Below are positions 4,448-28,616 of a DNA stretch of 64,000 nucleotides, piece after piece (the stretch's first letter is position 1; each line of letters starts with the position of its first letter). A program made the position numbers and the translations under genes. The stretch covers positions 2,552-66,551 of the forward strand of contig CAZILH010000001.1 of NCBI GenBank assembly GCA_964540095.1. The letters run 5' to 3'. The notes under the pieces were generated by a model. The model worked only from the letters and a program-made list of their open reading frames with translations. It ran no database searches and was not told the DNA's origin. Source of the stretch: an uncultured Gammaproteobacteria bacterium (GTDB lineage: Bacteria > Patescibacteriota > Patescibacteriia > UBA1558 > GWA2-36-10).

Positions 4448-4472
4448 TTGAGTTGTTTGGCGGCCGGCCGCC

Positions 4473-10109: not shown

Positions 10110-10802
10110 TTACCATCCCTTTACTTTCAGGGCCTTAGTAGCGGCCGCTGTCTGGGCCTCTTGCTTGCTATAGCCCTCACCATCAGCCACCAATTCTTTA
10201 TCTAAGTATACACCGATAATAAATTTTTTATTATGATCTGGCCCTGATTCTGACAACACCCGATAACGCGGGGTGACATTGTTTATCTCTTGGGCTTTTT
10301 CTTGAAAGCGACTTTTGGCGTCAATATATGTTTGCGAAGCAATGATGTCTGGCAAAGTCACTAGTATATTTTTTTTAATAAACTTATCAACTACGCGAAA
10401 TCCTTGATCAAGGTAGATGGCTCCCAATAGAGCTTCCATGGCATTGGCCAAGATATAACCGCGGGCTTTTTTGTTGGTGTCTTGGGACTCACCCTTACTC
10501 AAATACAAAAAACCATAAACACCCAGCTTCTCCGCAATCGTGGCTAGGTGCGTAGCATTGACTAAAGCTGAACGCCAGTTAGTCAGAGTTCCTTCATTCT
10601 CCTGATAATTGTGATACAAATAATCAGTGACCGACAGTTCCAAAACCGCGTCACCCAAAAACTCCAAACGCTCATTTTGCTCTATTGGAAAATCTTTATG
10701 TTCATTCAAATAAGAGCGATGCACCAAAGCGTTTTTCAAAATATCCGTATCCTTAAATTTCACTTCCAGCTTGTCTTCCAATAAAGAAATATTTTTTTGC
10801 AT
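10110..10802 (-). CDS. rnc: ribonuclease III
   Basis: ERLEFLGDAVLELSV RNase III signature; C-terminal dsRBD. Confidence 0.9.
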   Translation of the reverse strand: MQKNISLLEDKLEVKFKDTDILKNALVHRSYLNEHKDFPIEQNERLEFLGDAVLELSVTDYLYHNYQENEGTLTNWRSALVNATHLATIAEKLGVYGFLYLSKGESQDTNKKARGYILANAMEALLGAIYLDQGFRVVDKFIKKNILVTLPDIIASQTYIDAKSRFQEKAQEINNVTPRYRVLSESGPDHNKKFIIGVYLDKELVADGEGYSKQEAQTAAATKALKVKGW

Positions 10803-10803
10803 A

Positions 10804-11667
10804 CTATTCCAAATTTAACTTTTGCCAAGCCATGTTAAAAATATCCTTGGCATTGTCATAGCCCAAAACATCCAAAACCTCGTGCCTAGGGTACCACTTT
10901 ACATCCAGCAATTCAGAAACTTTTGGCACTATGATTTCCTTGTCTTTGGTCTCGACCAAAAAATATTTTATTAGTTTGCGGTAGGGCTTCACCTCTGGCT
11001 TATGTACCTTGACTTGGGTCTCACCCAGATAATCTTTGACTACTAGATTTTTCAAGCCGGTCTCTTCAAACAACTCTCGAGCTACGGCCTTTTCCAAGCT
11101 TTCACCTTCATTGACGTGACCTTTGGGGAAAGTCCACTTACCATAAGCATCCAGCAACAATACAAAATAATAACCATCTTCTTCCTGACGATAAATCACA
11201 CCGCCGGCTGACACTTCTTTGATACCCTGACTGACTAAGGTCTGTTTTTCACCTTTACTAATCATTTCTTTGTAGATGCTACCCAAAACGCCATTAACAA
11301 ATTTGCCGCTAGCATCACCGCCAAAAGCTTTGGCTAGCTCTATGGCTTCATTGATGGCTACTTTTGGTGGTATGTCATGATCCATCTTCAACTCACAAAT
11401 ACCAATGCGCAAAACATTACGGTCAATCAAAGTAATTTGGTCTATCGGCCACTCTGGGGCAAATTTACCAATCAACTTATCAATGGACTTCTGATTGGCT
11501 ACCACTTTTTCAATCAAATTCAAAGCAAAACCTTGATCGTCAAATTCCGGAGCAAATTCTTTTTGATTAAATTTCAAAATGTCACCAATATTTCCTTGGT
11601 GATTATTAAAATCCCACTCAAAGAGTGCTTGTAAAACAATAGTTCGAGCTAAATGACGATTAGCCAT
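10804..11667 (-). CDS. nusB: NusB antitermination factor fused to a C-terminal NUDIX hydrolase domain
   Basis: N-terminal half near-identical to NusB core ([32 protein letters not shown] versus E. coli [32 protein letters not shown]); C-terminal half carries Nudix box [23 protein letters not shown]. Confidence 0.85.
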   Translation of the reverse strand: [287 protein letters not shown]

Positions 11668-11670
11668 TGC

Positions 11671-11865
11671 TTATTTTTTGTTTACTTGGCTTTTGGTGGC
11701 TACTTTTTTTTCACCCTTATAGTAACCACATTTATTGCAAGCGCGGTGTGGCAATAATATTGCTCCGCAATTTTTACACTTGGTGGTACTGGCTTTTTTC
11801 AAAGCAAAATGCGACGCCCTGCGACGCGCTGAACTCTTGGTAAGTTTCTTTGTAGGTAAACCCAT
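11671..11865 (-). CDS. rpmF: 50S ribosomal protein L32
   Basis: Basic about 64-aa protein with C-x2-C...C-x2-C zinc ribbon (CKNCGA...CNKCGYY), typical L32. Confidence 0.85.
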   Translation of the reverse strand: MGLPTKKLTKSSARRRASHFALKKASTTKCKNCGAILLPHRACNKCGYYKGEKKVATKSQVNKK

Positions 11866-11962
11866 AATTTTTTTATTAGTTTCGTGATTTTAGCTAAATT
11901 TCCTATTTTGGTCAAGGAAGACCAAGTAAATCCCCGTCAATTATACCAAAGTTTAGGACTAT

Positions 11963-12195
11963 TGACAAACATAAAAAAACATGATATTATGACCCATCTA
12001 TTTAGAAAAGCACCTTAATTAGCGTTTTTAATATTTTTTCAGGCAACTGTGTCCACGACAAGCATGGGAATCATTTTTTTCGTCTAATTTGGCTACGGCT
12101 GAATTATTTCAAAAAATGGTTTTCTTGGACACAGCTGCTTGGAAAAATAATCTATCGTGGCCATATAAAAAAACGTCCCGCACTGCGGGACGTTT
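11963..12195 (+). ncRNA. orphan promoter-to-terminator unit (about 200 nt), candidate sRNA
   Basis: TTGACA-17-TATTAT promoter at 11963-11991; 13-bp long-range inverted repeat gcaactgtgtcca/tggacacagctgc; terminator aaaaaacgtcccgcactgcgggacgttttttt; only tiny ORFs (7 and 18 aa). Confidence 0.3.
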
Positions 12196-12197
12196 TT

Positions 12198-14075
12198 TTA
12201 TTGACTTGGTGTTGTACTAGGAGTGGTGGTGGCCGTACCTCCACTAGCTTCAGCAGCAATTTCTTCGGCCGTAGCACCCACCAGGCAAACTGCCTGCCAA
12301 GGCACATAGTGACTAGAAAAAGTGACTTTGACTGGTTCTGGTTTGTTTAAATATTGAACAATATAATCAAACTTAGCATCAGCTCCGGCGTGGGCACTCT
12401 CCGTACACTTAGTTTGGCCTACTGGTAAATTGGTGGTTTTTACAATTTTTTTCGGCGCTGGAGAAACTACATTATAGATTATCGGCTTGGTGGTAGTAGC
12501 CACGCGACCATCTGCTGTCCCCCAAAAATCAAAATATAATTTTGTGCCCTCTATTCTGGTTTGAATCAAAATATAATTACCAGTGTCATTCAAAAATTTT
12601 AAATCTGGCTTAGGGTCATAAATCGTGGCATCCATGCCAGCGGGCTCATAATAAACCACCCGATAAGAATGATTGCGTCTTTCGGTGATTGGCAGACCAG
12701 TACTCAGAGCCGCTCGAAAAACAGTGGTGCCGATCTGACACAAACCCCCGCCATACTCTGGTATTGTTTTGCTGCCCTTGATCACCAACTCCTGCTTGTA
12801 GCCATGCTCACCATCAATGTCGCCCAAGGCCGTAATCAAAGAAAACTCTTCGTCAACATTGATAAGCAAACCATTGAGCGTGTCCGCCCCAACTCCTATA
12901 TTGTGTATGCGATTGGGGGGACTGCCCTTGAAATCCGATTCGCCAGTACCCAAAAGCGTGCCAATACCCAAATCATTGGCGTCGCTATTCATTATTTTTG
13001 GTTTGACTGTTTCTACAACAATATCAAAATTATTTTTATTAGAACCCAATATCTTTTCGGCATTAGCTATTGTCTTGGTCCAATCAATCATCTTGCCTTC
13101 TTGGCTAGCCATAAATTCCGAAACCTTGCCGTTGTTTAATTTGAACTTGGCATCCTGAACCAAAACTTCAATATCTGAACTTAAGCCCTGATCATCAAAA
13201 TATTTTTTTGCTTTTTCAATGTCAAAACCTAAATACGGTTTATTTTTATTAAATTTAATTTGTAGCCACTGTCGCCAATCAGCATTAGCAATAGTTGTTG
13301 CCTGCTCATTATAATGAGCTACCAAATCTCCTTGCTGAGTGGTGTTGATAATTTGACTACGAAACTTATCTATTACCGCGCTAGTGACTATGGGTTTGTC
13401 CTCGACCACTACTAAATTAATTTCTCCTGTCTGCAATTTTTTTATTTGCTCCTCAGTGTCTGACATGGCCTGCTCATAGGTAAATGTCTGGCCAATAATC
13501 TCTGGATTTATCTTCAAGCCACCGGCTGATTCAAACTCAAAACTAGCTTCTTTTTTGCTAGGCAACAAACCCTTGAAATCTTCCTCCAAAATACTGCGAT
13601 GACGCTCCTTATCCCAAGTATAATCAAGCGACCAAGTTTTGCCTCCCAGCATTACGCTAATTTTATTCAACAAATTAGCGGGCCGCTCATCTTTTTGAAA
13701 TTTTAAAATTTTATCCAAACTTTTTTCCATCTGCCACATGACCAAAGGAAAAGAGCTGTCAGCCGAACCAGCGCTAATAATAGGATAAATGGTGGACTTT
13801 TTGCCTTGTCCCATATAGACGAAGCCATCGCGACTAAAAGTGTCCAAATGCTCTTGGGTTTTCTTTTTGGCCTGCTCATAGGTCAGCCCGCCAATATTAA
13901 CACTGCCAAGTTTTGTTCCTGGCAAAAAAACATTGGCATACTTGTAGTTGACAGTGGCATTAGCCACAAAAACAGCTACCAATAAAAAACAAAAAACCGC
14001 TGCTACAATCAGAATTATTTTTAGCGGCCAATGCTTGTGCTTTTCTTCTGCAACAATTTTATCCTTCAGTGTCAT
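12198..14075 (-). CDS. VanW-family protein with N-terminal TM anchor
   Basis: EYGGGLCQIGTTVFRAAL matches the VanW domain GGGxCQxSTT motif; single N-terminal TM. Confidence 0.7.
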   Translation of the reverse strand: MTLKDKIVAEEKHKHWPLKIILIVAAVFCFLLVAVFVANATVNYKYANVFLPGTKLGSVNIGGLTYEQAKKKTQEHLDTFSRDGFVYMGQGKKSTIYPIISAGSADSSFPLVMWQMEKSLDKILKFQKDERPANLLNKISVMLGGKTWSLDYTWDKERHRSILEEDFKGLLPSKKEASFEFESAGGLKINPEIIGQTFTYEQAMSDTEEQIKKLQTGEINLVVVEDKPIVTSAVIDKFRSQIINTTQQGDLVAHYNEQATTIANADWRQWLQIKFNKNKPYLGFDIEKAKKYFDDQGLSSDIEVLVQDAKFKLNNGKVSEFMASQEGKMIDWTKTIANAEKILGSNKNNFDIVVETVKPKIMNSDANDLGIGTLLGTGESDFKGSPPNRIHNIGVGADTLNGLLINVDEEFSLITALGDIDGEHGYKQELVIKGSKTIPEYGGGLCQIGTTVFRAALSTGLPITERRNHSYRVVYYEPAGMDATIYDPKPDLKFLNDTGNYILIQTRIEGTKLYFDFWGTADGRVATTTKPIIYNVVSPAPKKIVKTTNLPVGQTKCTESAHAGADAKFDYIVQYLNKPEPVKVTFSSHYVPWQAVCLVGATAEEIAAEASGGTATTTPSTTPSQ

Positions 14076-14286
14076 TGTCTATCAAATCATTTAAAATTCT
14101 TTTTTGATCCTCGGCTGTCATTTTAATAGCGCTTGAATCCAAGGAAATATAGTAATTTATACTTTGATCAAATTTTTCACCCAACAGGGAGCTAGCCATA
14201 ATGACTTCCGCGCCAGTCGCGGTTTGAAAAACTAGTTTATCTCCCTCTGACCTAATATATTTTAGTAATAAATTTTTTGGCAACAT
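14059..14286 (-). CDS. small hypothetical protein (75 aa)
   Basis: ORF beginning right after hsp20 stop; no motif. Confidence 0.3.
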   Translation of the reverse strand: MLPKNLLLKYIRSEGDKLVFQTATGAEVIMASSLLGEKFDQSINYYISLDSSAIKMTAEDQKRILNDLIDNDTEG

Positions 14287-14287
14287 A

Positions 14288-14707
14288 CTAATTGTCGTCT
14301 TCCACCGAAATCTTCTTGCCATCAGCGTGATGAACTTTTGGCAAAACAATTGTCAGTATTCCATTTTTTATGGTGGCCTTTATTTTATCGGCTTGCACTT
14401 CTAATGGCAAAATAATCGAACGAGAAAAGCTACCCCAATAACATTCTTTGTAGAAATAATCATCTTCACTAATAGTTTGGTCTTGCTGTCGTTCACCGCG
14501 GATAGTCAACATGTCATTGTGAAAACTAATATCAATGTTGTCTGGATCTACTCCGGCTATGGTTGACTTGATAACAATATTATTTTTATCCTGATAAACA
14601 TCTACTGAGAGCTGACCCTCTTCGTCAAAGGCCTCTTCTTTATGCTCGATTGGCGCGGCTTCAAGCTCTTTAGCTGGCTGATTTTTTTTATTTTTCTTTT
14701 TAAACAT
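14288..14707 (-). CDS. Hsp20/alpha-crystallin family small heat-shock protein
   Basis: Alpha-crystallin domain pattern (GSFSRSIILP...GILTIVLPK). Confidence 0.85.
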   Translation of the reverse strand: MFKKKNKKNQPAKELEAAPIEHKEEAFDEEGQLSVDVYQDKNNIVIKSTIAGVDPDNIDISFHNDMLTIRGERQQDQTISEDDYFYKECYWGSFSRSIILPLEVQADKIKATIKNGILTIVLPKVHHADGKKISVEDDN

Positions 14708-14821
14708 AGTTATTGTTTATGCTTGTATTATAAAATCTTTCGAGTGACTTGTAAAGCAAAATTTGCCTTATCAGGATGATTATGATAAAAGAAAAGTGTA
14801 GGCACCAACCAAGGAGGAATT

Positions 14822-15082
14822 ATGGCCAACGTCATCAACGTCGACCAAGCTCCGCGGATCTCTCGGCGCCCCTTCTGGTACACCCTAGCGGTTTTTGCCT
14901 TTGTGGGCATGCTGATCCTGACGATCGGCTCGCTGTTCTTACCATCTCTAGCCGTCCTACTGCTCGAAGCACTCGTCCTGGGCCTCGCCCTGCTCTTTAC
15001 CTTGAGTTACTGGGTGATCGACATCGTTTGTCGAAGATTCGTTGACTGCCGCCAATTTCGGTGGCAAAAAAAAGGAGGCTGA
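14822..15082 (+). CDS. GC-rich cassette: small 2-TM membrane protein
   Basis: AAGGAGGA RBS at ~14808; GC-rich; two hydrophobic helices. Confidence 0.5.
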   Translation: MANVINVDQAPRISRRPFWYTLAVFAFVGMLILTIGSLFLPSLAVLLLEALVLGLALLFTLSYWVIDIVCRRFVDCRQFRWQKKGG

Positions 15083-15232
15083 GTGGGGATCGTGGCAGGT
15101 CCCAACAGAGAACAGATCCTGCATCAGTGGCCAACAAACGGCGCTGGTGCAGGATTTTTATTTTTAACAAAATTAAGAGCCCCCGTTCTGTGAAAAAACG
15201 GGGACTCATATTCGACAAGCTCCTAGCTAGAA

Positions 15233-15661
15233 TCAATCTGTGCGCAGATTGTAGATGAAGCTCTGCCTACGCAGATGATCAAGGATTGATTTGGTGACTG
15301 TTTGAGTGTCGCTGGTAGTCGTCAGGCCGATAGCTGTCCAACACACATCGTCAATTTGCAAAAGCCGAATGTCCCAATTCAGCTTCTGCTTATGCTGATA
15401 GTCGGTGAGCTCTTGACGCTGCGTGGGATCCAGTGGATAGCTGAATACCAGATAGACCTGATCCGGTGCCTCATACAAGACAAGGTAGATGAAGTCGATT
15501 TGGTACGGACTAATGACACCCTTACCCCATGTCAAACACTGGGTATTGTTGTGACTCGGTAATGTGGGCCAAATCAAAGGCATCACCGACGGCTCGTTGT
15601 TGCCAAGGGCCGGCATGGCCAAACACAGGAAGCAAAAGGCCAACAAAACAAAACGACACAT
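15233..15661 (-). CDS. GC-rich cassette: secreted hypothetical protein (signal peptide)
   Basis: N-terminal signal peptide MCRFVLLAFCFLCLAMPALG; GGAGG RBS; GC-rich. Confidence 0.5.
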   Translation of the reverse strand: MCRFVLLAFCFLCLAMPALGNNEPSVMPLIWPTLPSHNNTQCLTWGKGVISPYQIDFIYLVLYEAPDQVYLVFSYPLDPTQRQELTDYQHKQKLNWDIRLLQIDDVCWTAIGLTTTSDTQTVTKSILDHLRRQSFIYNLRTD

Positions 15662-15799
15662 GATGCCCCTCCTTGAGCGCTAGAAGTGATGAAAGAACTG
15701 GGACAATTGAGTAGTATATAGTAAATAAATAATTTGTAAAGAAAAAACAGGCTCGGATAATTCCGAGGCCTGCTTGTCTGGCCGACTCTGCTAAATACT

Positions 15800-16210
15800 T
15801 CACGCTTCCATCATGCGGACGAGACAAAGACGATTTTCATTGATCCGCCCAATAATCGACGGGGATTTGGCAAGCGCCTCCTCACTTCTTACTGCGCCCT
15901 CAATTCTATCTAGCTCTTGGCTAGTTAGCCGCCTTGCTGTGTAGCCAACCCCGCCGACACGACCATAAAAATCCAACAGCGAAGTTAGCACGCCATATCT
16001 CACATCCACGTTGAGCGTTTTGTCTTCTAGTTTTGCCAGAAGATAACTTATGTGAGTATCAGCCTCACGCTCAGTTCTGGCTCTACTAATTTCATTTTCT
16101 AACCTGCAAGCTTCCTCCTTTTTCTTGTCGCGATGTATTTGCCACCACATAGAAAAAGTTGCAACAAAAATGACCGAGCAGATTATCAGAATAGGAGTAA
16201 GGTAATGCAT
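15800..16210 (-). CDS. GC-rich cassette: N-terminal TM-anchored hypothetical protein
   Basis: GGAGG RBS; TM then charged coiled region; terminator hairpin ~15745-15780 downstream. Confidence 0.5.
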   Translation of the reverse strand: MHYLTPILIICSVIFVATFSMWWQIHRDKKKEEACRLENEISRARTEREADTHISYLLAKLEDKTLNVDVRYGVLTSLLDFYGRVGGVGYTARRLTSQELDRIEGAVRSEEALAKSPSIIGRINENRLCLVRMMEA

Positions 16211-16359
16211 GGCAACGCCTCCAAATCATCACTCTCTTGGCCAGACACTTAAAGAACTAATTTAAGTATATACTCTCTTTACCCTGGCCTGTCAATGGTG
16301 TATTTTTAATTCGTTTTATCAAAATTTCACAACTAAAAAACATCCTGTTTTGGGATGTC

Positions 16360-16437
16360 TGGTGGTCGCAGGAGGACTCGAACCTCCGACCTCTACAATG
16401 TCAATGTAGCGCTCTAACCAGCTGAGCTATGCGACCC
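16360..16437 (-). tRNA. tRNA-Val: tRNA-Val (anticodon GAC), CCA encoded
   Basis: RC folds as cloverleaf: GGGTCGCATAGCTCAGCTGGTTAGAGCGCTACATTGACATTGTAGAGGTCGGAGGTTCGAGTCCTCCTGCGACCACCA. Confidence 0.85.
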
Positions 16438-16940
16438 TATTTAATATATAAATACATGGCTGACCGACCAACTGGCTTATCAATTATTGTCGGCTGCCAA
16501 CCCTCTATTGGCCAGACATAGGCAATCACCCGTGTACCCGGCTTTAATTCTTTGGCCAATTTATTTTTTAATTGATCATAAATACGCGGAATCAAAAAGA
16601 AATATACTACATCTGCCTCTTTCAAGTCAACCAGCCAAAAATCACGAAATTTTATCTGTGCCTTACTACCTGAAAATATTTTTCTGATATACGCACCAAC
16701 AAATGGCAATATAGATACTTCCAAACCAATTGCCTTGGCACCCTGTTTGGCAGCCGCCATTACCAGTCGCCCGTCGCCGCAACCCAAATCATACACTACT
16801 TGTCCGGGCTTGATTTCTGCTAAACGCAAAAATCTTTCCACATCCTTTTGCCAGGTCGGCACCCAGCCAATACCACGAACCAGAGAATAGATGGTTGTAA
16901 CGGCAATGGCTATAACTAATATTAACAACAAATAATACAT
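16437..16940 (-). CDS. class I SAM-dependent methyltransferase with N-terminal TM helix
   Basis: VYDLGCGDGRL motif I of SAM MTases; stop codon abuts 5' end of tRNA-Val. Confidence 0.7.
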   Translation of the reverse strand: MYYLLLILVIAIAVTTIYSLVRGIGWVPTWQKDVERFLRLAEIKPGQVVYDLGCGDGRLVMAAAKQGAKAIGLEVSILPFVGAYIRKIFSGSKAQIKFRDFWLVDLKEADVVYFFLIPRIYDQLKNKLAKELKPGTRVIAYVWPIEGWQPTIIDKPVGRSAMYLYIK

Positions 16941-16943
16941 AAA

Positions 16944-17528
16944 TTATTCAATCATTTTCAAAAGTTCTTGTAGGACAATTGGCAGTTCTTTGGTGTTGTC
17001 TCGTTGGCCACTAAAATGTCCCTGTTTATGTTCTATAATTATTTTGGACCCCAACTTCTCGCGAAAATCATTTTGGTTTTCAAGTGGTACCCAAGGATCG
17101 TCGTCAGAAAAGATGGCCACACTTTTGCTTAGATGTTTTTTTATTTTATCAAAATCGATAGGCGCATCCAGCCACTCTTTGGCAACACTGCGAACCGTGT
17201 CGTCATCTTCTAGACCTACTAAACTTTTAAAAAAACCAGCCACAAAAACTGCCCCGCCAATTTTAGTATCCTTTGATAAATTTTCTAGATAACGCACAAT
17301 AGCTTGGCAGCCCATACTATGCCCAACAAAATAAGTGTCTTGATCGGGGCCTTTTACAAAATCCCTTAGAGCCGAAACCCAATTTTTTATTCTTGGTTCA
17401 TCGGCCTGAGGAAGTTGCGGAACAAAAACTTCAAAACCATGACTTTCTAACTGTCCTTTCAGCCAAGGAAACCACCCCTCTTCGGGATAACCGTCCCAAC
17501 CATGAATTATGTATACTTTTTTTGACAT
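16944..17528 (-). CDS. alpha/beta hydrolase (YdeN/RBBP9-like serine hydrolase)
   Basis: VYIIHGW...GHSMGC nucleophile elbow; start set at MSKKVYIIHGW to avoid overlap with tRNA-Leu. Confidence 0.7.
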   Translation of the reverse strand: MSKKVYIIHGWDGYPEEGWFPWLKGQLESHGFEVFVPQLPQADEPRIKNWVSALRDFVKGPDQDTYFVGHSMGCQAIVRYLENLSKDTKIGGAVFVAGFFKSLVGLEDDDTVRSVAKEWLDAPIDFDKIKKHLSKSVAIFSDDDPWVPLENQNDFREKLGSKIIIEHKQGHFSGQRDNTKELPIVLQELLKMIE

Positions 17529-17541
17529 GTCCTTAAATACT

Positions 17542-17638
17542 TGGTGCCGGGGAGAGGACTCGAACCTCCACACCCTTACGAGTACCAGCTCCTAAGGCTG
17601 GCGTGTCTACCAATTTCACCACCCCGGCATAAAACTAT
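17542..17638 (-). tRNA. tRNA-Leu: tRNA-Leu (anticodon TAG), long variable arm, CCA encoded
   Basis: RC: GCCGGGGTGGTGAAATTGGTAGACACGCCAGCCTTAGGAGCTGGTACTCGTAAGGGTGTGGAGGTTCGAGTCCTCTCCCCGGCACCA. Confidence 0.85.
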
Positions 17639-17771
17639 AAATTAAAACTTTTAAAAATACTGAACCACCCCACAATGACGCTGTTATTTATACTAAAAAA
17701 TGAAAAAAAAGTCAAAGTAACCAAGCCCACACAAAAAACAAGAGGGGCACCGGCTGTGTTGCCGACGCCCC

Positions 17772-18200
17772 CTAGAAACGAGTCTTATAGCAGACTGTCT
17801 CTTGACGACCATAAACCACTAAGTAGTCACGGCCGTATTCGCTGACAATGGCGATTGTGCCCTTGTCCGCCTTTTCATAAATGCGGTCAAAGAAGTGTGG
17901 CTCAGTCATACGGCCAGTAAAGGCGTTAGGCAGACAGTTGCTGTCAGGCAGTGTGCTGGCAAAGCTTCGACCATCAGGAAAACGATCAAGTAGAGACCAT
18001 GGCATTCGACCGGTAGCAGAGCGGAAATCCTTGATCGCTGGCTCAAGAAGCTGCGCCTGTGCTTCGGCTTTTTCTTGTTGTTGACCATCTTGATGTGCAT
18101 CTTTAAAAGCCCTGGCAATCCACATAACCAAACCAACTACCACGACAAGGGCCACGATAAGCACCGCCGCCCTTACTGCGCCTTTTTTAATTTTGTGCAT
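17772..18200 (-). CDS. GC-rich cassette: N-terminal TM-anchored hypothetical protein
   Basis: Strong AAGGAGGTGA RBS; divergent promoter region shared with 18384 gene; GC-rich. Confidence 0.5.
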   Translation of the reverse strand: MHKIKKGAVRAAVLIVALVVVVGLVMWIARAFKDAHQDGQQQEKAEAQAQLLEPAIKDFRSATGRMPWSLLDRFPDGRSFASTLPDSNCLPNAFTGRMTEPHFFDRIYEKADKGTIAIVSEYGRDYLVVYGRQETVCYKTRF

Positions 18201-18383
18201 AATGCAATCACCTCCTTCAAGGTGAAATGTGAAGTACTCTATCCCGCCCTGAAATTATCATTTTGCTGACACTGTGTCAAACTGCGCCTTACTAAATATT
18301 GACAAAATAGCCCTCATATAATAATATAATGCGTTCTTCACTGTCCTTCGCATCCCAACAAAAAACCCGAAATAATCGGGGAG

Positions 18384-18971
18384 GTGAAAATCATGTCTTT
18401 CTGGCAATGGTTGGAAAAGCGGCTGGTCACGGCTGACGATCCTCTTCCTCGTGGCTCAGCAGTCATCATTGGTGTTGGCATCGATGTGTCATCTAATGGT
18501 CGCTCTGCCAGCCCCTACTCCAGAGCCGTGGCTCAGAAGAGTGCTCTGCTCTTCCGTCTCGGCTGCGCTCGCCGGATTATCTTCACGGGTGGCTATTTCA
18601 AGCCCGGTGTTAGTGGCGTCACCGAAGCCTGGGGTATGGCCAACTGCCTCTTCCTTTACAAGCCGACCATACCAAGAGACAGGGTGGGGCTGGAGATCTA
18701 CGCCAACCGCACCTACCTGAACGCCGACTATACCTTACCCCTGCTTCGACCGGGTGAGAAAAGCGTGATCATTGTGGCCCAGCAGTGGCACGCTCGTCGT
18801 GTCCGTGCCACCTTCAAGAAACGCTGGGCTGGCTCAGGTATCGAAATCCGGGTCGTCAAGGCCTGGTCTAACTACGGTGGAGGAAGCCAGAAACGCCTCG
18901 ACCACTTCTGGTCATTTTTCCTCTGGGATTCACTCGCCTTCGTTGTCAGCAAGCTGAAGGGCTACTGCTGA
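18384..18971 (+). CDS. GC-rich cassette: DUF218/YdcF (ElyC/SanA-like) family protein
   Basis: GGAGGTG RBS, TTGACA-17-TAATAT promoter at ~18299-18327; pattern (IIFTGGY...VIIVAQQWHARR) resembles DUF218. Confidence 0.55.
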   Translation: MKIMSFWQWLEKRLVTADDPLPRGSAVIIGVGIDVSSNGRSASPYSRAVAQKSALLFRLGCARRIIFTGGYFKPGVSGVTEAWGMANCLFLYKPTIPRDRVGLEIYANRTYLNADYTLPLLRPGEKSVIIVAQQWHARRVRATFKKRWAGSGIEIRVVKAWSNYGGGSQKRLDHFWSFFLWDSLAFVVSKLKGYC

Positions 18972-19035
18972 CTCCTTGAGCTCCTTGCCCGCGCTACACA
19001 CGCCGGATAAGGAGCTTATTTTATTTTTAAAAAAT

Positions 19036-21540
19036 TTATTTTTTCTTTTTTAGCTTAGTAGTCAACACATAAAAAATACTTATTACTAAAAATCCCAGCA
19101 AGACAAATTTTAATATTTTTTTGGCTTGTGAGGATCCCTGATTGGCTTCCACCGTACTAGTGCTATTAGTGCTTGTTGAAATTTTTTCGCCCAAAACTTT
19201 TTGCTCCATTTGTAAATCACTTTTATCAAAAACATCCAGACGCACTACTTTTTCATCAAACTGCAATAAGCCACTAGCAATCACTTCAGTGCCTTTGTCT
19301 AGCTTTAAATCCTTGGTGTCAAACTTAAGACTCAGGCGCAAATTATATTCTTGATCAACATCATCAGCTAAATAAATATTTTTGCCATTTTTTTTGACCA
19401 CTACTCCGCGCGCAATCACTAATTGCCCGTTATGTTCTTCATTGAGATCTGTGCTGTCTATAATCTCTGGCTTAACTATTTCCTGGTCACCTTCTAAAAT
19501 ACTTATTTCCTGATCACTGGCAATTTTTACTCTGGGCCAGGGATCAACTCTGGTAATTTTGCCAGATAAATAAATTGCGTCGCCTCTTTTATACTTGGCA
19601 AAATCTAAAGCACCGTAGACCTCAACTAAACGATTTTCATAATCTAACAAATATAATATTTTATTATTCTGGCCCCAAACCGTGGCTGTAATATTTCTAT
19701 TTTCTCCTTTTTTATATTCCAAGTTTTCACTAGCCGCCTGGAGAGTGTTCGCAATGTTTGCTTGCTCCGGACTTGGGCTTTCACTAACAAACCATTCGTT
19801 ATTGGCTAAGTCCCAAGCATAGGACTGACCCTCGGGGATTTTTTCATATTTTACTTCTTGCCAAACTTCATTCAATGGTGTAAGTAGGCGTACGCTGTCT
19901 ATGGTGTTGTTCAAAGTAATTTGACTGGTATTTCTATCAATCACCAAAAAACTGCCAGCTGAAATAATCGTGCTAGTGGCAAAAACATACGACTTACTGC
20001 CACCCTCCTCATCGTCTAATTGCCAGCCAAGTAAATCAATGTTTTTGGCGCTGACGTTGTATAGTTCTATCCACTCACCATCATCATTGCCAACTGGATT
20101 GGGCAACAATTCGGTGATTAACAAATCTTCTGTTCTAAAATCTATGGACTTAACATCGGCTAACTTCAAGTCAACTGCTTTATTTTCCACAACAATATTT
20201 TTGGTGACTTCATTGCTTAGTCCAGTAGAATCAGTGACTTTTAATTTAACCAAATAATTACCCGCTTTTTCGTAGACGTGATTTTCTTTGGCCTCATCGC
20301 CATTTTGATTATCGCCAAAATCCCAAAAATACTTTAACTCCCCTTCTTCAGGATCGGTGGATTCAGCACCTGAAAAAATTATTTTTGTATTAGCAAAAAA
20401 TTTATCACCTTCGATTTTTAGCACAGCTTGCGGCGCTTGATTCTCTGGCAAGACATTGGCCTGGCCAGGTGTAGGACTTGGCGTCCAAGCCAATGACCCA
20501 TTTATCAAGGCCCAGCTCTTGCCCTCTGGCGCCGAAGCATCATAAACAGCGCTATCTAATATATTGTTGTCTGGCGAATAAACTTTCACACTATCACCGC
20601 CAGTGTTATTCAAAGATATTTTTGTTTGATTTTTGTAGAGTACCAAATACGAGTTGCCAGCCAAAAGCAAACCCTGCCCAATAGTATATTGTCCGGCCGA
20701 ATTGTCCTGCACCTTGAAGCCAGACAGATCAACTGTGTTTTGTCCTTGATTAAATAATTCTATCCATTCAGCGTCGTCACTGCCCACTGGATTGGGCAAC
20801 AACTCTGATATTTTTATTTGTGACCAATAATTAGTCGGCACTCTGGTGCCACTACTAACCGGCGCTTCGGGAGCTGGCGTCTCCGGCTCCTCATCAGCCG
20901 GTGGATCGTCACCATCGCCACCATCATCTGGCGGTAAAGGTGGTAGGTCTGTGCCTTGACTTTTCACTGCGCCCGGAGTGCCACCCAAGACAAAGCTCTC
21001 TTGCCAGTTACTCACTGCACTTTCTTGCGTCAAATTTATTTTTTCTAGTGTTTTGCCATTGCCACTTGCGCCCCAAGTAGAATCATAAATAGCGCTGATA
21101 CTTTGAGTTTGACCGCCATCAAAACTCAAAGCAATGGTACTGCTAGAATTACCCAAGCTCATGACTGTGTCAAAAACCGCTAAGGCAAATCCCGGATGCT
21201 CAGTCAAAAAATTCTGCGCATCAGAGGCAATGATAAAATATTCGCTCACGGCAATAGTACTGGTGCCATTGACCAAATTCAAAATATGATTTGAGCCATC
21301 AAAAAAACGCCAAGTATCAGCACCCGACCCAGTTAAAACTTCTACGGCTTCTGAGCCACCATTGTAGACCTCAATCCACTCACGACCACTATCTGATCCA
21401 TCCAAATCGTACATGATTTCAGAAATCACCAAGTCGCTACTCCCTGCTTGAATGGTCTGCGGACAAAGCAAAACAAATATTAAAATAACAAGCGCCCAAA
21501 GGGCGACCGCCCTTTGGGCGGAAATCGCTTTTCTTTTCAT
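19036..21540 (-). CDS. large surface protein with three lamin-tail domains (LTD), a PKD-like domain and C-terminal TM anchor
   Basis: Signal peptide; three repeats of the LTD signature (ISEIMY..GSD..EWIELYN); YFWDFGDNQNGDEAKENHVYEKAGNYLVKLKVTD PKD-like motif; C-terminal hydrophobic helix plus KKKK. Confidence 0.75.
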   Translation of the reverse strand: MKRKAISAQRAVALWALVILIFVLLCPQTIQAGSSDLVISEIMYDLDGSDSGREWIEVYNGGSEAVEVLTGSGADTWRFFDGSNHILNLVNGTSTIAVSEYFIIASDAQNFLTEHPGFALAVFDTVMSLGNSSSTIALSFDGGQTQSISAIYDSTWGASGNGKTLEKINLTQESAVSNWQESFVLGGTPGAVKSQGTDLPPLPPDDGGDGDDPPADEEPETPAPEAPVSSGTRVPTNYWSQIKISELLPNPVGSDDAEWIELFNQGQNTVDLSGFKVQDNSAGQYTIGQGLLLAGNSYLVLYKNQTKISLNNTGGDSVKVYSPDNNILDSAVYDASAPEGKSWALINGSLAWTPSPTPGQANVLPENQAPQAVLKIEGDKFFANTKIIFSGAESTDPEEGELKYFWDFGDNQNGDEAKENHVYEKAGNYLVKLKVTDSTGLSNEVTKNIVVENKAVDLKLADVKSIDFRTEDLLITELLPNPVGNDDGEWIELYNVSAKNIDLLGWQLDDEEGGSKSYVFATSTIISAGSFLVIDRNTSQITLNNTIDSVRLLTPLNEVWQEVKYEKIPEGQSYAWDLANNEWFVSESPSPEQANIANTLQAASENLEYKKGENRNITATVWGQNNKILYLLDYENRLVEVYGALDFAKYKRGDAIYLSGKITRVDPWPRVKIASDQEISILEGDQEIVKPEIIDSTDLNEEHNGQLVIARGVVVKKNGKNIYLADDVDQEYNLRLSLKFDTKDLKLDKGTEVIASGLLQFDEKVVRLDVFDKSDLQMEQKVLGEKISTSTNSTSTVEANQGSSQAKKILKFVLLGFLVISIFYVLTTKLKKKK

Positions 21541-21582
21541 ATTTAATTGTTAATTGTAATTATTGACTAAAAAAATTTATTT

Positions 21583-22098
21583 TTATCTAAAATAATTGTT
21601 AATTAATTCTTCTGTTTCTGTGCACTTTATAAATTCCGCATACCCCGGATCTTCTGGTTCTAGCATCCGCCCAGTACTACAAGCATCGGCCCATAATAAA
21701 TAATCTTTATAAGCGTGCTTTGGCCCAATAATACCGGCATTACAAAAAGCTTCTGGTTGAACTGTTAAAAAACTCAAAAATTTTTCATTGCTCCAATGAT
21801 AATAATTTGGAGTAATAATGGTCTTAATTCCCCCGGGCAAATCCAAACCCTTCATACTGCCACTCTCAGTGAGTTTTAAAAATTCATTAAACTCTTCATT
21901 GGGACAAGTCTTATCAAAAGATCTTTCTACTGGATTAGTTATTTCTTGATAGAGACTAAAATTTTCTATTTGTTTAATTATTGGGTTATTTTTTTTATTT
22001 GCTATAAAAAAATATAAGCCAACTAAAAACAATGGAATTAAAAATAAAATAATTAATAAATGCTTTTTATTTAATAAAAACATATTAAAAATCACCAC
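21583..22098 (-). CDS. hypothetical membrane-anchored protein
   Basis: N-terminal TM; AT-rich host-like composition; no motif. Confidence 0.4.
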   Translation of the reverse strand: MVIFNMFLLNKKHLLIILFLIPLFLVGLYFFIANKKNNPIIKQIENFSLYQEITNPVERSFDKTCPNEEFNEFLKLTESGSMKGLDLPGGIKTIITPNYYHWSNEKFLSFLTVQPEAFCNAGIIGPKHAYKDYLLWADACSTGRMLEPEDPGYAEFIKCTETEELINNYFR

Positions 22099-23105
22099 AT
22101 ATCAATTAAACTCCAATTAGCATATTTGTCCTCTCTTGTCCACGGCCAATAAACTCGCTTCGTGGAAATGTCCACTAAATGAAGTCCGCCAGCACCAGAA
22201 AAAATATAATATTTGTCATTGTTTGACCAAAAACCATCTATAAACATGCCCTCATTGTTTGTAAATAATAAATAATCTTTATCACTATCTATATCCCATA
22301 AAATAAACCGACAAAAATCAGTATTGTCACATTTCTGCTTAATAGCAAAATGACCATTGCTAGAAAGATGAAAGCCCAAATTATCTTCTGTCTTCTTGTC
22401 TTCTATTGCTCCAGAGGCCAAATCTAGTTTGCGTAAAAATGTATCTACTTCGTATAAAATTTTATTACCCTGTTTGGCAACCGTAAAGTACGGCCATAAA
22501 TTATCCACCAATTTATATTGAGTATTGCCATCATTCGTGACATATATAAAATCTTGCTGACCCTCCATGCCGCCCCGAACTAGGCCCATGATGTGAAAAT
22601 CTACTTTGCCAAAGTCATCAATACTCCCTACAATTTGATCATCTTTTTTGGCAAATGTTATTTGTTTTTTTTCGCTAGTATTATTAGTCAAATCAAAAAC
22701 CCAATAATACCTCCCTTCTTCTTTTCCTGTAAACAAAACCGTAAAGCGACCATTATTAGAAATGGAAAAGACCGGGTCGCCATCCTCTGGTGATAGCTTG
22801 TAAATTTCATTCTCACTGCGATTTAAGAGATTCCTAGCCAACAATGATCCATTTTTAATAAAATATAACAAATGTCTATCGGCATCCAACTCCACATCTG
22901 TTCGTTGATTAATGCTAACTTGATCAATTGTTTGACATTTATTATAAACGCATTGTTCCACCACAAAACCAACGGGGGTACTCCACAATCTGTAGTGTGG
23001 TTTCATAAATATTAGTTTTGTTCTGTCTTCAACTTTTTTTAAAAAAATAAAAGACCCACCAACTAAAATCAAACTTATTATCAAAATTATTATTTTTCTT
23101 TTCAT
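22092..23105 (-). CDS. hypothetical membrane-anchored protein (possible beta-propeller-like periplasmic domain)
   Basis: N-terminal TM; W/Y/D/G-rich repeats; no confident family. Confidence 0.4.
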   Translation of the reverse strand: MKRKIIILIISLILVGGSFIFLKKVEDRTKLIFMKPHYRLWSTPVGFVVEQCVYNKCQTIDQVSINQRTDVELDADRHLLYFIKNGSLLARNLLNRSENEIYKLSPEDGDPVFSISNNGRFTVLFTGKEEGRYYWVFDLTNNTSEKKQITFAKKDDQIVGSIDDFGKVDFHIMGLVRGGMEGQQDFIYVTNDGNTQYKLVDNLWPYFTVAKQGNKILYEVDTFLRKLDLASGAIEDKKTEDNLGFHLSSNGHFAIKQKCDNTDFCRFILWDIDSDKDYLLFTNNEGMFIDGFWSNNDKYYIFSGAGGLHLVDISTKRVYWPWTREDKYANWSLIDMW

Positions 23106-23140
23106 ATTTATAATTATAATATTATTGTAACATAAAATTA

Positions 23141-23176
23141 GTGCCGGACGGAGAGTGGGGACTCTCCGTCCGGACT
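23141..23176 (-). terminator. intrinsic terminator of GC-rich lipoprotein gene
   Basis: Perfect 12-bp stem ccggacggagag/ctctccgtccgg with tgggg loop. Confidence 0.6.
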
Positions 23177-23184
23177 TTCACGCA

Positions 23185-23808
23185 TCACCCACCAATCACG
23201 TAGTAGCAGGTGTAAAGTGACACCTGGGACTCGAAGGTGGAAAAAGAAACGAAGCGTTCACGAACATAGTTCGTGGCAACCCAGTTGCTTTCGATGATGT
23301 TCATGCCAGCCGAACCAGTCGCCGTCACAATGAATGTGTGTGGTGTGACGCCCTTGGACGTTTTCCAGTTGGTTTGCACGATGCAACCAGGAAAAACCGT
23401 CCTGATGTTGCCTAGGGGCCTCAGATAGGGACTGCTGGCGAAATACCAGCCACTGGCATTCGGGAGTGTGCTGGGCAAGTTCACCACATTCCGCGAGGCA
23501 GCCAAGACAACGGCACGAGCCCAATCCTTGCAGTTCAGGCCAACGTAACGCCCGTTGTCCACCCACGCCCTCTCAATGATCGCCTGATTCCGCGTAGCCT
23601 GACTCAAGCCACGCCACCACGCCTTGTCGGCGGCAGTCGGAATCGCCTTATCCACCTGCCCACTGGGAACATCCGGGTTCTCTCCGCCCGGCTGAACACT
23701 CGTGGTCGGAGCCGTGACCATCGGCTCCTCCCCATCACAGCCCGCCATCCAGGACAGCAGGCCCAGGGCCAGCAGTACGCTGACCAGCAAACTCACTCTG
23801 CTCTTCAT
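23185..23808 (-). CDS. GC-rich cassette: lipoprotein of unknown function
   Basis: Signal peptide with lipobox LSWMAGC; GGAGGA RBS; about 60% GC. Confidence 0.5.
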   Translation of the reverse strand: MKSRVSLLVSVLLALGLLSWMAGCDGEEPMVTAPTTSVQPGGENPDVPSGQVDKAIPTAADKAWWRGLSQATRNQAIIERAWVDNGRYVGLNCKDWARAVVLAASRNVVNLPSTLPNASGWYFASSPYLRPLGNIRTVFPGCIVQTNWKTSKGVTPHTFIVTATGSAGMNIIESNWVATNYVRERFVSFSTFESQVSLYTCYYVIGG

Positions 23809-24044
23809 GACAAGTCCTCCAATGAAAAAGACCTAGGAACAAACACGCGTCTGACTCTTGAGGGTAGTGGCAAAAATAAACCTCCTTTGTTGTAAAGAAC
23901 AAGTGCTCGCTCTTTTACCCTCACAAAAAATTGAGCCAGCTAAAAACTTTCGCTTTTCTTAGCTTGGACAAGGCCCGAAAGATACAGGCAAACTTTTTAG
24001 GCCTTGCTCCAAGATAAAAAAATATCTTAAAAAATTATGATAAA

Positions 24045-24458
24045 TTAATTATCTTCTTCAATTTGAATTTCCTCGATATCAATTTCTTCTTCCTTGGCGT
24101 TTTCGTCGCCTTTGGATTCCTTCTTTTGACTGCCACCGAGCATGATCAGATCAGAAGCCACAATCTCGGTCATATATTTTTTGACCTTATTCTTGTCTTC
24201 CCAAGATCTGTTCTGCAGACGGCCTTCGATGAAAACTTTGGAGCCCTTTTTCAAATAGGCGGTGATTATTTCGGCCAAATGTCCCCAAGCCACTACGCGG
24301 TGAAACTCGGCTCGATTCTTTTTTTCCTTGGTTTTGGCATCGCGCCACACATAATTGGTGGCCAAGGTCATGGTGGCTACCGCTTGCCCGCTGGGCAAAT
24401 TCTTGCTGATCGGATCTTTGGTAATGTTGCCGATCATACTAACCTTGTTTAGGTCCAT
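24045..24458 (-). CDS. ssb: single-stranded DNA-binding protein
   Basis: OB-fold SSB N-terminus (MIGNITKDP...ATNYVWRD...FHRVVAWG), Gly/acidic tail. Confidence 0.85.
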   Translation of the reverse strand: MDLNKVSMIGNITKDPISKNLPSGQAVATMTLATNYVWRDAKTKEKKNRAEFHRVVAWGHLAEIITAYLKKGSKVFIEGRLQNRSWEDKNKVKKYMTEIVASDLIMLGGSQKKESKGDENAKEEEIDIEEIQIEEDN

Positions 24459-24557
24459 ATCGCTTTTCCTTTCTTTGCCTGCCGTTTTCCGACAGAATAA
24501 TTATTAAAGTCAAACCAAAAACCCCTATTTAACCCATGCCAAAATAGGGGTAAGTGG

Positions 24558-24690
24558 ATTGACAAAAATGATTATTTATTTTAGAATCTAAATTGAGGTT
24601 AACCATTCCTTCAGGGGATATGGCAATCTCAAAATCGCTTTTCTTAACAAAGTCCCGCCCATAAAGCGGGGTTTTGTTTTTTATATAAAA
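24558..24690 (+). ncRNA. orphan promoter-terminator unit (about 95-nt transcript), candidate sRNA
   Basis: TTGACA-17-TAGAAT promoter at 24558-24586; nested stems ttgag/ctcaa; terminator cccgcc-cataaa-gcggg plus gttttgtttttt; no plus-strand ORF. Confidence 0.3.
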
Positions 24691-24857
24691 TAAATAATCG
24701 TAAAAAATGTTATTAATCCAGGTGGATTTAGCAGAAAAATTTGTTTTATTGTTAAAAATATAAAACATATCTTGGCTTTTCTTATAGCCGTCTATAAAAA
24801 CAATGACGGCTTACTCTGCCGTCATCTTAGCACTCGATATTTTGTTGTCAAGACCTA

Positions 24858-25454
24858 TTATAAATATTTTCCCAAAAAACTGCGCCGATGCAGTGGGCAT
24901 AAGCCGTGTTCTTTTATTAGGCGCAAATGCTCTTTGGTGCCATAGCCCTTATGTTGATCAAAATTATAGGCTGGAAATTCTTTGTGCCAATCAGTCATTA
25001 GTTGGTCACGAAACACTTTGGCAATAATTGAGGCGGCGGCAATTTCTTCATGCACACTTTCGCCGTGTTGGAAAAATTCAAGTTTAGTGTCTGGCCAATA
25101 TTTTTTGGCTGCGCCCACATAGTCAGCTACAATATTTATTTCTCCATGATTGATGTTGATAATTTTTTTTAATAAATCATTAAGCGCTTCTTGCATGACC
25201 AAAATATTAACCATTTGAATACCGCGCTGATCAATGATCTGACTATCAATTATTTTAATACTAAACAAAAAATTTTCCACTATCAACTCACTTAAAGCTT
25301 CTCTTTTTTTCTGAGACAACAATTTGGAATCCCGAACTTGCTTTAAAATATTTTTTTGCTCTTCCGAACCCATAGAAAAAACTGCCGCCCCGACAATCGG
25401 CCCAGCTACCGGTCCCCTACCCACTTCGTCAATGCCAATTTTGTATTTAGCCAT
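24858..25454 (-). CDS. rnhB: ribonuclease HII
   Basis: IGIDEVGRGPVAGPIVGAAV N-terminal RNase HII signature. Confidence 0.9.
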   Translation of the reverse strand: MAKYKIGIDEVGRGPVAGPIVGAAVFSMGSEEQKNILKQVRDSKLLSQKKREALSELIVENFLFSIKIIDSQIIDQRGIQMVNILVMQEALNDLLKKIININHGEINIVADYVGAAKKYWPDTKLEFFQHGESVHEEIAAASIIAKVFRDQLMTDWHKEFPAYNFDQHKGYGTKEHLRLIKEHGLCPLHRRSFLGKYL

Positions 25455-25543
25455 ATTTATATATTATACTTTTTTGACATAAAAAAGAAATGCCAGCTAT
25501 ACTTCTTGTGATGCACCAGAACCTAACAAATAGGGAGGTGGTC

Positions 25544-26047: not shown

Positions 26048-26093
26048 AACACCCCGCGGACAATTCTGCGGGGTGTTCACTTTTTTATTAATT

Positions 26094-27317: not shown

Positions 27318-27326
27318 TTTTTTGGT

Positions 27327-28268: not shown

Positions 28269-28274
28269 AAAAAA

Positions 28275-28598: not shown

Positions 28599-28616
28599 AA
28601 ATTTAAAAATTAATTA

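Follow-up and report, generated by a model that had tools for sequence, protein, structure and literature searches.

The GC-rich gene cassettes that stand beside three tRNA genes in a 64-kb stretch of DNA (64,000 nucleotides of contig CAZILH010000001.1, positions 2,552 to 66,551; the whole stretch is called the window) are probably flexible slots for accessory genes in the core chromosome, near the replication origin, of a Patescibacteria (candidate phyla radiation, CPR) bacterium. One slot holds a gene of the diversity-generating retroelement (DGR) type. An initial annotation of the window had taken the cassettes for genomic islands integrated at tRNA genes; the feature it flagged is real but ordinary in kind, and site-specific integration into tRNA genes would play no part in it. 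Each slot would hold one to three monocistronic modules, each composed of a sigma-70-like promoter, a Shine-Dalgarno site, a small open reading frame (ORF), and a hairpin-T terminator. The encoded proteins are fast evolving and mostly predicted to be membrane anchored or secreted, and they include a YdcF/DUF218 protein and a DGR-target-family protein. Related strains would acquire, lose, and exchange modules through homologous recombination within the conserved flanking sequence, the breakpoints falling at the promoter and immediately past the terminator. We propose that many slots adjoin tRNA genes because a tRNA gene is transcribed as a unit of its own, and insertions are tolerated in, or drawn to, its flanks.

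The three tRNA genes were found by both ARAGORN and Rfam and lie where the initial annotation put them.

16360–16436, minus strand, tRNA-Val(gac), 77 of 77 positions identical in the related contig L003
17542–17628, minus strand, tRNA-Leu(tag), 87 of 87 positions identical in L003
30622–30696, minus strand, tRNA-Arg(cct), 56 of 75 positions identical to the allele in the related contig L088

The GC excess of the flagged intervals is real, since they rank in the top 0.2–3% of same-length windows. The interval near tRNA-Val (14776–16215) has 47.9% GC (97.2nd percentile), the interval near tRNA-Leu (17772–18975) has 51.5% (99.8th), and the interval near tRNA-Arg (29124–30600) has 49.1% (99.5th), compared to 41.1% for the whole window. 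The finer description of these intervals needed correction. Each supposed single cassette consists of two or three separate genes, and the starts at 14776 and 29124 derive from out-of-frame or antisense ORFs that are not real genes. The distance to tRNA-Leu is 144 bp rather than 130 bp. The third cassette was placed ~20 bp from tRNA-Arg, but its ORF ends 180 bp away and only the terminator region comes within ~50 bp. A location at the tRNA 3′ side is correct for tRNA-Val, where a hairpin-T terminator (16338–16360) directly follows the tRNA gene, and for tRNA-Arg; all three tRNA genes are on the minus strand, which puts 17772–18975 on the 5′ side of tRNA-Leu. Structured RNAs were rejected as the cause of the high GC: Rfam at gathering thresholds returned the three tRNAs only, and permissive scans of both regions gave nothing credible.

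The cassette genes and the genes between them are as follows (aa, amino acids; GC3, GC fraction at third codon positions; VR, variable region).

14822–15082, plus strand, cassette gene, 86 aa, two hydrophobic segments, GC 0.55, GC3 0.68, GGAGG ribosome-binding site
15233–15661, minus strand, cassette gene, 142 aa, signal-peptide-like N terminus, GC3 0.61, promoter-like site 15713–15740, terminator 15177–15207
15800–16210, minus strand, orphan gene, 136 aa, N-terminal hydrophobic segment, GC 0.46, terminator 15752–15767, in the slot directly 3′ of tRNA-Val
16437–16940, minus strand, core methyltransferase-like gene of native GC between tRNA-Val and tRNA-Leu, weak Pfam methyltransferase matches
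16944–17528, minus strand, Ser_hydrolase gene (PF06821, Pfam 7.4e-23) of native GC, start 13 nt past the tRNA-Leu CCA end
17772–18200, minus strand, cassette gene, 142 aa, N-terminal membrane anchor, GC 0.49, terminator 17743–17772, 5′ of tRNA-Leu
18393–18971, plus strand, YdcF/DUF218 gene (PF02698, 49.7 bits, cut-off 27.6), GC 0.57, GC3 0.66, promoter-like site 18299–18327
23185–23808, minus strand, lipoprotein-like cassette gene, 207 aa, GC3 0.70, terminator 23144–23173, no adjoining tRNA
25490–26047, plus strand, window-specific single-gene insertion in the slot between rnhB (RNase HII) and gdh, promoter 25474–25503, terminator 26048–26077, no adjoining tRNA
29173–29445, plus strand, cassette gene, 90 aa, three to four hydrophobic segments, GC3 0.74, promoter 29112–29140 (12/12 match), terminator 29473–29498
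29879–30442, plus strand, DGR-target-type gene, 187 aa, GC3 0.81, VR-homologous segment ~30314–30440
36788–37348, minus strand, cassette gene in the slot between dnaN and ruvA, 186 aa, GC 0.61, 64% identity in L088, no adjoining tRNA

Most cassette ORFs are bracketed by predicted consensus-like promoter sites and hairpin-T terminators. Promoter-like sites were found for 15233–15661, 18393–18971, 25490–26047, 29173–29445, and 29879–30442, and the site at 29698–29726 is among those that frame cassettes. Terminator-like hairpins were found for 15233–15661, 15800–16210, 17772–18200, and 29173–29445. The cassette promoters are AT-rich and host-like, and GGAGG-type ribosome-binding sites are visible in the cassette sequence where checked. 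A hydrophobic N terminus or membrane segments occur in 9 of 14 cassette proteins, and a single one, the YdcF/DUF218 protein, has a Pfam domain above threshold. Its homologs are named YdcF/DUF218, apart from one enoyl-CoA hydratase fusion, and carry the organism labels Patescibacteria, Kerfeldbacteria, or plain 'bacterium'. The 15233–15661 family has 10 matches among 1.84 billion cluster representatives, and 15800–16210 matched only itself among 5.8 billion proteins. A phage or defense origin was rejected, with PHROGs and NCBIfam giving no credible match for ten cassette proteins each and the sole match falling far below the cut-off, in a search that did not include PADLOC.

GC-richness and tRNA adjacency are two separate properties. 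Roughly 14 cassette-type ORFs are dispersed over the window, and GC-rich segments distant from tRNA genes occur at 2379–3131, 4330–4996, 23127–23922, 36619–37375, and 60094–60654. The genes closest to tRNA-Val and tRNA-Leu are only mildly raised in GC (15800–16210, 45.7%; 17772–18200, 49.4%), and 29510–29800, within the third flagged interval, has 26.8% GC. The separation of the two properties follows from the variable DNA of native GC beside tRNA genes, the tRNA-distant cassettes, and the cassette on a tRNA 5′ side. Small GC-rich ORFs far from tRNA genes (GC3 0.63–0.79) lie at 34–477, 2405–2974, 4473–4952, 23185–23808, 36788–37348, and 59936–60622; none has a Pfam domain above threshold, and several have membrane anchors or lipoprotein-like signals.

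The window was compared with five syntenic relatives and two more distant ones, all of them metagenomic assemblies. The aligned range of the window and the DNA identity in blastn blocks are given for each.

6900–41456, G1 (L003 and L088, one contig), ~79–92%
10268–29758, G2 (L083), ~85–96%
10124–28931, G3 (L084/L085), ~85–95%
16360–41682, G4 (L095), ~64–89%
16437–27683, G5 (L102), ~69–81%
~19800–41700, G6 and G7 (L091 and L090, 34–35% GC), ~62–84%

An identity matrix separates core genes from cassette genes. Core genes are 85–99% identical to those of G1–G3 and are still detectable in G4, G6, and G7; the methyltransferase-like gene, for example, is 91–95% identical in close relatives and is also present in L102 and L095. 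The relatives lack the cassette genes, have others in their place, or share only 27–86% identity in them, yet the slots occupied are the same. The 15233–15661 gene has 76–86% identity, the DUF218 gene 74–75%, and the 17772–18200 gene 75% in L003, L083, and L084, the last being absent from L102 and L095. The 15800, 25490, and 29879 genes have no counterpart in G1, and 15800–16210 is also absent from L083 and L084. Gene 23185–23808 is partly replaced in relatives and has 59% identity in L102. Compared to L003, L083, and L102, gene 25490–26047 is a clean promoter-to-terminator insertion that lacks flanking repeats. Gene 36788–37348 is absent from L095, L091, and L090, whereas dnaN and ruvA are 98% identical. 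In two cassettes the ORF is highly divergent and the sequence just outside it is conserved on both sides. The 14822–15082 ORF has 47–54% identity over 40% of its length, with the DNA conserved outward from ~14805 and ~15044, and the 29173–29445 ORF has 60% (L088) and 27% (L083) identity between a conserved promoter and terminator.

The cassettes are distributed over seven slots between core features, each named by its two borders (MTase, the methyltransferase-like gene).

Slot 1, HSP20 and tRNA-Val
Slot 2, MTase and tRNA-Leu
Slot 3, tRNA-Leu and LTD
Slot 4, LTD and ssb
Slot 5, rnhB and gdh
Slot 6, csoR and tRNA-Arg
Slot 7, dnaN and ruvA

The content of the tRNA-flanking slots differs from relative to relative. 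The slot 3′ of tRNA-Val holds the orphan gene 15800–16210 in the window and only a 180-nt noncoding element in G1; G2 has this element plus 2.7 kb of native-GC genes (39% GC; a 286-aa protein, PfkB, a LOG-like protein, and TrpR), and G3 has a different 125-nt element. The tRNA-Leu 3′ flank carries the hydrolase gene in the window and G1 and a 120-nt structured element in G2 and G3; the hydrolase is absent at this site from L083, L084, L102, and L095. At the tRNA-Leu 5′ flank the 17772 gene and DUF218 are kept in G1–G3, and DUF218 also in G5, at ~72–79% DNA identity; 14822–15661 is likewise kept in position in L003, L083, and L084. The tRNA-Arg slot has an unrelated GC-rich gene of ~196–211 aa in G1 and G2, and no Pfam domain is present in the 196-aa gene of L088 or in other slot genes in relatives. 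Nonhomologous GC-rich ORFs fill the equivalent slots of G4. The LTD–ssb slot (21583–23105) of the window has two unusually AT-rich ORFs (29% and 34% GC); most relatives lack them and have PsbP_2-like and Peptidase_C39_2 genes in their place. Slot content can thus be AT-rich as well as GC-rich.

Immediately after the CCA end of tRNA-Val or tRNA-Leu, and before the terminator or the following gene, relatives have structured noncoding elements of 120–190 nt (L003 11170–11345; L083 ~8310–8492 and 9074–9194; L084 8370–8491 and 9073–9193; L095 ~60–211; L070 after 9908). They are absent from both sites in the window and have no Rfam match. The folding z-score of one version is −5.5, and the pairing of its first hairpin is kept despite entirely different sequence between copies. 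A conserved fold for the post-tRNA-Val elements was rejected, as the consensus of four sequences was weak (−4.6 kcal/mol). Their T-loop-like start (TTCGAYTC) was rejected as an att site because its tRNA match was not above chance.

Contig L115, obtained from the sample that also gave G3, shows a module swap. Its first 627 bp match L083 at 100% identity; it then carries a 29879-type gene (86% identical to the window) where L083 has an unrelated 211-aa gene, and returns to G1-like sequence just past the terminator of the 29879-type gene. The breakpoints of this swap coincide with the promoter region and the terminator end. Synonymous sites point in the same direction. Four-fold-site identity between the window and G2 (L083) is 58% for DUF218 compared to 76–83% for the flanking gdh and LTD genes, showing that the cassette alleles are older than the surrounding core as DNA and not only as protein. 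The pattern fits recombinational replacement of alleles.

Flexible genomic islands of replacement and additive types have been described for marine bacteria, and the additive ones often lie beside tRNA genes. Judged by synteny, the identity matrix, the L115/L083 swap, and the four-fold sites, the slots are flexible genomic islands in the pangenome sense. They share with the known islands a fixed place between core genes, content that differs or alleles that are deeply divergent among close strains, and synonymous divergence above that of the flanks. They differ in their tiny scale of one to three genes, in modules precisely bounded by promoter and terminator, and in a strong and long-lasting GC excess; they show no sign of glycosylation or of any other function known from islands. 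A literature search for GC-rich islands in Patescibacteria gave nothing relevant.

The slots lie in a conserved chromosomal setting. Pfam identified trmD, rpsP, smc, rnc, a VanW protein, HSP20, ssb, rnhB, gdh, trxB, trx, csoR, bactofilin, yidC, rnpA, dnaA, dnaN, ruvA, femAB, a Mur ligase, ftsK, and recA in the window, which also contains rpoB/C-sized ORFs. The cumulative GC skew has its minimum, and gene orientation switches, at ~30.7–31 kb near yidC, rnpA, dnaA, and dnaN. Together with the core gene set these features mark the window as the replication-origin region of the chromosome, and the probable origin falls inside it. DnaA boxes in the window (25 matches compared to 17.5 expected) are scattered and form no cluster that would place oriC. 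The closest relatives of the window are Patescibacteria metagenome-assembled genomes (MAGs). A homolog search with the hydrolase 16944–17528 returned candidate-phyla MAGs only, among which a contig labeled 'Patescibacteria group bacterium' matched best, at 89% identity.

The gene beside tRNA-Arg identifies one slot as the home of a DGR-type protein. In a complete DGR, a reverse transcriptase (RT) with Avd copies a template repeat (TR) into the C-terminal VR of the target gene with adenine-specific errors. The 29879–30442 gene has 421 homologs with 49–85% identity among the 120 matches listed, and the taxon-labeled homologs among these are Patescibacteria or plain 'bacterium'. Its protein is 55–65% identical over 84–100% of the length to P0072, P0100, P0122, and P0128. 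In every long context of the family that was readable, bAvd (PF22296) or RVT_1 lies within ~1 kb after the gene, and both do in most. Target gene, TR, bAvd, and RVT_1 occur together in four independent contexts (P0100, P0122, P0128, and P0072). The last 113–129 nt of the target gene are repeated downstream in L104, L106, L107/L110, and L113, and mismatches between the copies fall at template adenines in 16/16, 13/13, 12/15, and 19/21 cases, respectively. Adenine-specific mismatches are the defining signature of VR/TR pairs, and they identify the repeats as such. On these comparisons, 29879–30442 belongs to a DGR variable (target) protein family. The predicted fold gives weak C-type-lectin-like matches, TvpA and Mtd among them. 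DGR clade 2 is restricted to Patescibacteria, and remote DGR targets go unnoticed when contigs are short (Roux et al. 2021, PMC8144416).

A complete DGR inside the window was rejected, as no RT, Avd, or TR was found within the 64 kb. Pfam scans of window ORFs gave neither RVT_1 nor bAvd. A tblastn search of the window and relatives with the RT and Avd proteins of L104, L106, L107, and L110 gave nothing below E=0.6, and there is no second copy of 30230–30520 in the window and no template repeat in the whole-window repeat search. The test that gave no second copy here did recover the VR/TR pairs of L104, L106, L107/L110, and L113. The window gene has the conserved post-VR element and terminator, running to ~30565, and tRNA-Arg occupies the place after the stop codon where DGR parts would sit. 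The C-terminal 43 residues have ~7 differences from the 85%-identical L115 homolog P0065, the same rate as the rest of the protein. The variable region is thus no more divergent than the remainder and shows no sign of ongoing diversification. The gene looks like an orphan or remote DGR target with a frozen variable region. It resembles the DGR variable proteins (Bordetella phage Mtd, Treponema TvpA, Patescibacteria DGR clade 2) through the adenine-mutated VR/TR pairs that its family has beside bAvd and RVT_1 in four other genomes. It differs from complete systems in having no TR, Avd, or RT in 64 kb and no excess divergence in the variable region.

The most clearly tRNA-linked variable gene of the region is the hydrolase 16944–17528, which the initial annotation did not flag. 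Its start, only 13 nt past the CCA end of tRNA-Leu, leaves no room for a promoter of its own; the gene is promoterless. Homologous loci number 76, from many Patescibacteria lineages with a few labeled DPANN. In 31 of them the hydrolase lies ≤300 bp downstream of a same-strand tRNA, with 17 different anticodons represented, compared to a background of 3–6% (binomial p ~8e-19). Most of the 31 spacings are within 90 nt, and often 1–36 bp. None of the 31 tRNA-adjacent loci had a downstream att repeat that reached p<0.01. A weaker form of the earlier idea therefore survives, in that tRNA flanks are variability hot spots, as the hydrolase shows best. A broader proposal joins two claims and seems doubtful as a whole: Patescibacteria tRNA 3′ flanks would be landing pads for integrase-less single-gene modules, the hydrolase being the clearest case, and, separately, the GC-rich cassettes, DGR targets among them, would be a phylum-shared pool. 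In such a pool some force would have to keep synonymous sites GC-rich inside genomes of 35–42% GC. Such a force could be biased gene conversion where recombination is concentrated, selection, or continual re-import.

The islands could instead be old, decayed, tRNA-targeted integrative elements that have lost integrase and att repeats or are mobilized by an integrase encoded elsewhere. We consider this unlikely, as neither an integrase nor an att repeat, the two features that define a classical island integrated at a tRNA gene, was found. The statement of the initial annotation that the window has no integrase holds to the extent of Pfam scans on ~50 window ORFs, with small ORFs not covered, which found no integrase, transposase, or RT domain. 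The relatives add none, since the precomputed Pfam annotation of the syntenic loci L083–L085 contains no recombinase. Direct repeats of tRNA 3′ ends, which the islands should have left in their flanks, were not found. The 24-nt tRNA 3′ ends with ≤3 mismatches match only the tRNA genes themselves in the window, and the longest words common to tRNA 3′ ends and the 6-kb flank are at chance level. Permissive scans with E up to 10 detected no partial tRNAs, and the whole-window repeat search detected no repeat family that links the cassettes. Empty sites were another expectation. One exists in L003 for 15800–16210, which is the only clean insertion/deletion at tRNA-Val and is not GC-rich; 14822–15661 and 17772–18975 are kept in place. 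From this conservation the cassette on the tRNA-Leu 5′ side is old, and most flagged genes are kept in position at ~72–90% DNA identity. Equivalent cassettes also lie away from tRNA genes, for example between RNase HII and gdh and between dnaN and ruvA.

Variation at tRNA genes is the evidence in favor of decayed islands. All three tRNA 3′ flanks are variable, with three contents in relatives at tRNA-Val, presence or absence of the hydrolase at tRNA-Leu, and alternative genes at tRNA-Arg. A tRNA contact is found for 4 of the 7 slots in 6900–41456 compared to 6 of ~30 junctions (hypergeometric p=0.016), and 3 of 3 tRNA 3′ junctions are flexible slots (p=0.009). Both tests are post hoc with a small sample, and both overstate the tRNA-flank effect because junctions inside operons, which cannot take insertions, were counted. 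In L102, a 19-nt remnant (AGTCCTCTCTCTGGTACCA; ~555–575, minus strand) lies 52 nt downstream of tRNA-Leu (627–713). It matches the 3′ end of the window-type tRNA-Leu at 16/19 positions (p ~0.002 against shuffles), and L102's own tRNA-Leu differs in the T stem. The remnant may be the scar of an old integration at tRNA-Leu. The tRNA-Arg allele also differs from that of L088 (9544–9618), with compensated changes in the acceptor, anticodon, and T stems between flanks that are ~88% identical. However, these alleles differ gene-wide rather than in the 3′ part alone, as integration would give, and the whole gene seems to have been replaced relative to the closest relative.

The likeness to tRNA-linked genomic islands (pathogenicity islands, integrative and conjugative elements, P4-type prophages) is therefore partial. 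The cassettes share with them tRNA adjacency (3′ for Val and Arg), atypical GC, variation between strains as accessory DNA, flexible slots at tRNA flanks, and an empty site in a relative at one slot. They differ in the lack of a detected integrase and of tRNA 3′-end duplication, and in their single-gene units of 0.3–0.9 kb with own promoter and terminator. Most cassettes keep their position, one is on the 5′ side of its tRNA, and others of the same kind stand away from tRNA genes. Integron gene cassette arrays are likewise runs of small, unrelated, single-gene cassettes mostly without known function. Here the genes have their own promoters and ordinary terminators and lie on both strands. An integron-like array was rejected because neither IntI nor a repeat common to the cassette ends was found; attC-like repeats were not seen either, in a search without a dedicated attC model.

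Recent import from high-GC donors outside the CPR, such as host bacteria, with a GC content that has not yet drifted to the value of the recipient, is improbable. Import would explain a GC3 of 0.61–0.81 in cassette genes compared to ~0.40 for the genome, genes absent from more distant syntenic relatives, and the several orphans. However, the GC excess is long lived at DUF218, gene 23185, and the DGR-target family, which recent import does not fit. DUF218 occupies the same locus with high GC in the window, G1, G2, and G5, and its four-fold-site GC is 0.59–0.66 throughout. Its four-fold sites are 50% identical between the window and G5 (L102), and the high GC at this locus dates from before the L102 split. 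Four-fold-site GC of gene 23185 is 0.71 and 0.66, compared to 0.37–0.49 for core genes. In 3 of 3 genomes checked, the DGR-target family has a higher GC content than the host genome (0.50 vs 0.35, 0.51 vs 0.40, and 0.62 vs 0.53), which indicates that high GC travels with the family inside the phylum. Distant DUF218 homologs have native composition (GC3 of 0.28 and 0.44 in genomes of 32% and 38% GC, respectively). Cassette homologs, where they exist, are labeled Patescibacteria or unclassified, and the AT-rich promoters are those of the recipient type.

Assembly or binning chimeras, with foreign GC-rich reads in an AT-rich contig, are highly improbable: the composition changes are abrupt and the source is a MAG, but L001 and L002 (two other sequencing runs) hold the 142-aa gene, DUF218, and LTD with the same junctions, orthologous GC-rich genes stand in the same order in L003/L088, L083, L084/85, and L102 from different samples, the AT-rich promoters and terminators that frame GC-rich ORFs run on into conserved host sequence, and the junctions are thus reproduced in independent assemblies (L001/L002 and G1–G5).

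Several points weigh against the interpretation of the cassettes as recombining flexible slots. Cassette four-fold-site GC stays at 0.59–0.71 in lineages that are 45–50% identical at those sites, against 0.37–0.49 in the core, and simple transfer followed by drift to host composition does not explain so lasting an excess. Slot enrichment at tRNA flanks and the L102 tRNA-Leu remnant suggest that some tRNA-directed process may have acted in this clade. We infer recombination as the swap mechanism from the breakpoints. The evidence covers ~64 kb of the genome, and an RT or integrase could lie elsewhere. The comparison draws on five to seven related metagenomic assemblies.

For annotation, high GC beside a tRNA gene is insufficient to call an integrative island in CPR genomes. 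The high GC here marks a flexible layer of small surface-protein genes and a stranded DGR target in a conserved origin region. The CPR lifestyle is one of attachment to other cells. Interaction with the host or with phages could plausibly be determined by fast-evolving membrane or secreted proteins that can be swapped and by a ligand-binding protein of the DGR type. The long-lasting synonymous GC excess and the linkage of a serine hydrolase to many tRNA 3′ ends are two side results of interest in their own right.

Three adjacent paralogous genes at 57914–59855 match T4SS_pilin/TrbC (VirB2-like pilins) and have internal repeats in common; the GC-rich lipoprotein-like gene 59936–60622 comes after this trio. 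Between the divergent csoR and 29173 promoters lies a GC-richer element (28927–29100) whose length and sequence differ in L083 and L088. It contains two copies of TTCTCGACTC...TCGCTCGAAGAAAT, exact 14-mers at 28982 and 29082. An AT-rich imperfect inverted repeat (TTGGCTAACCCAGTTAGAAATTT / AAATTTCTAACTGGGCTAA..TTAGCCAA) at 29520–29665, between the two tRNA-Arg-side cassettes, is conserved in L083 and L088 and may be a regulator binding site. A related half-site is found at 1300–1329, upstream of an epimerase gene.

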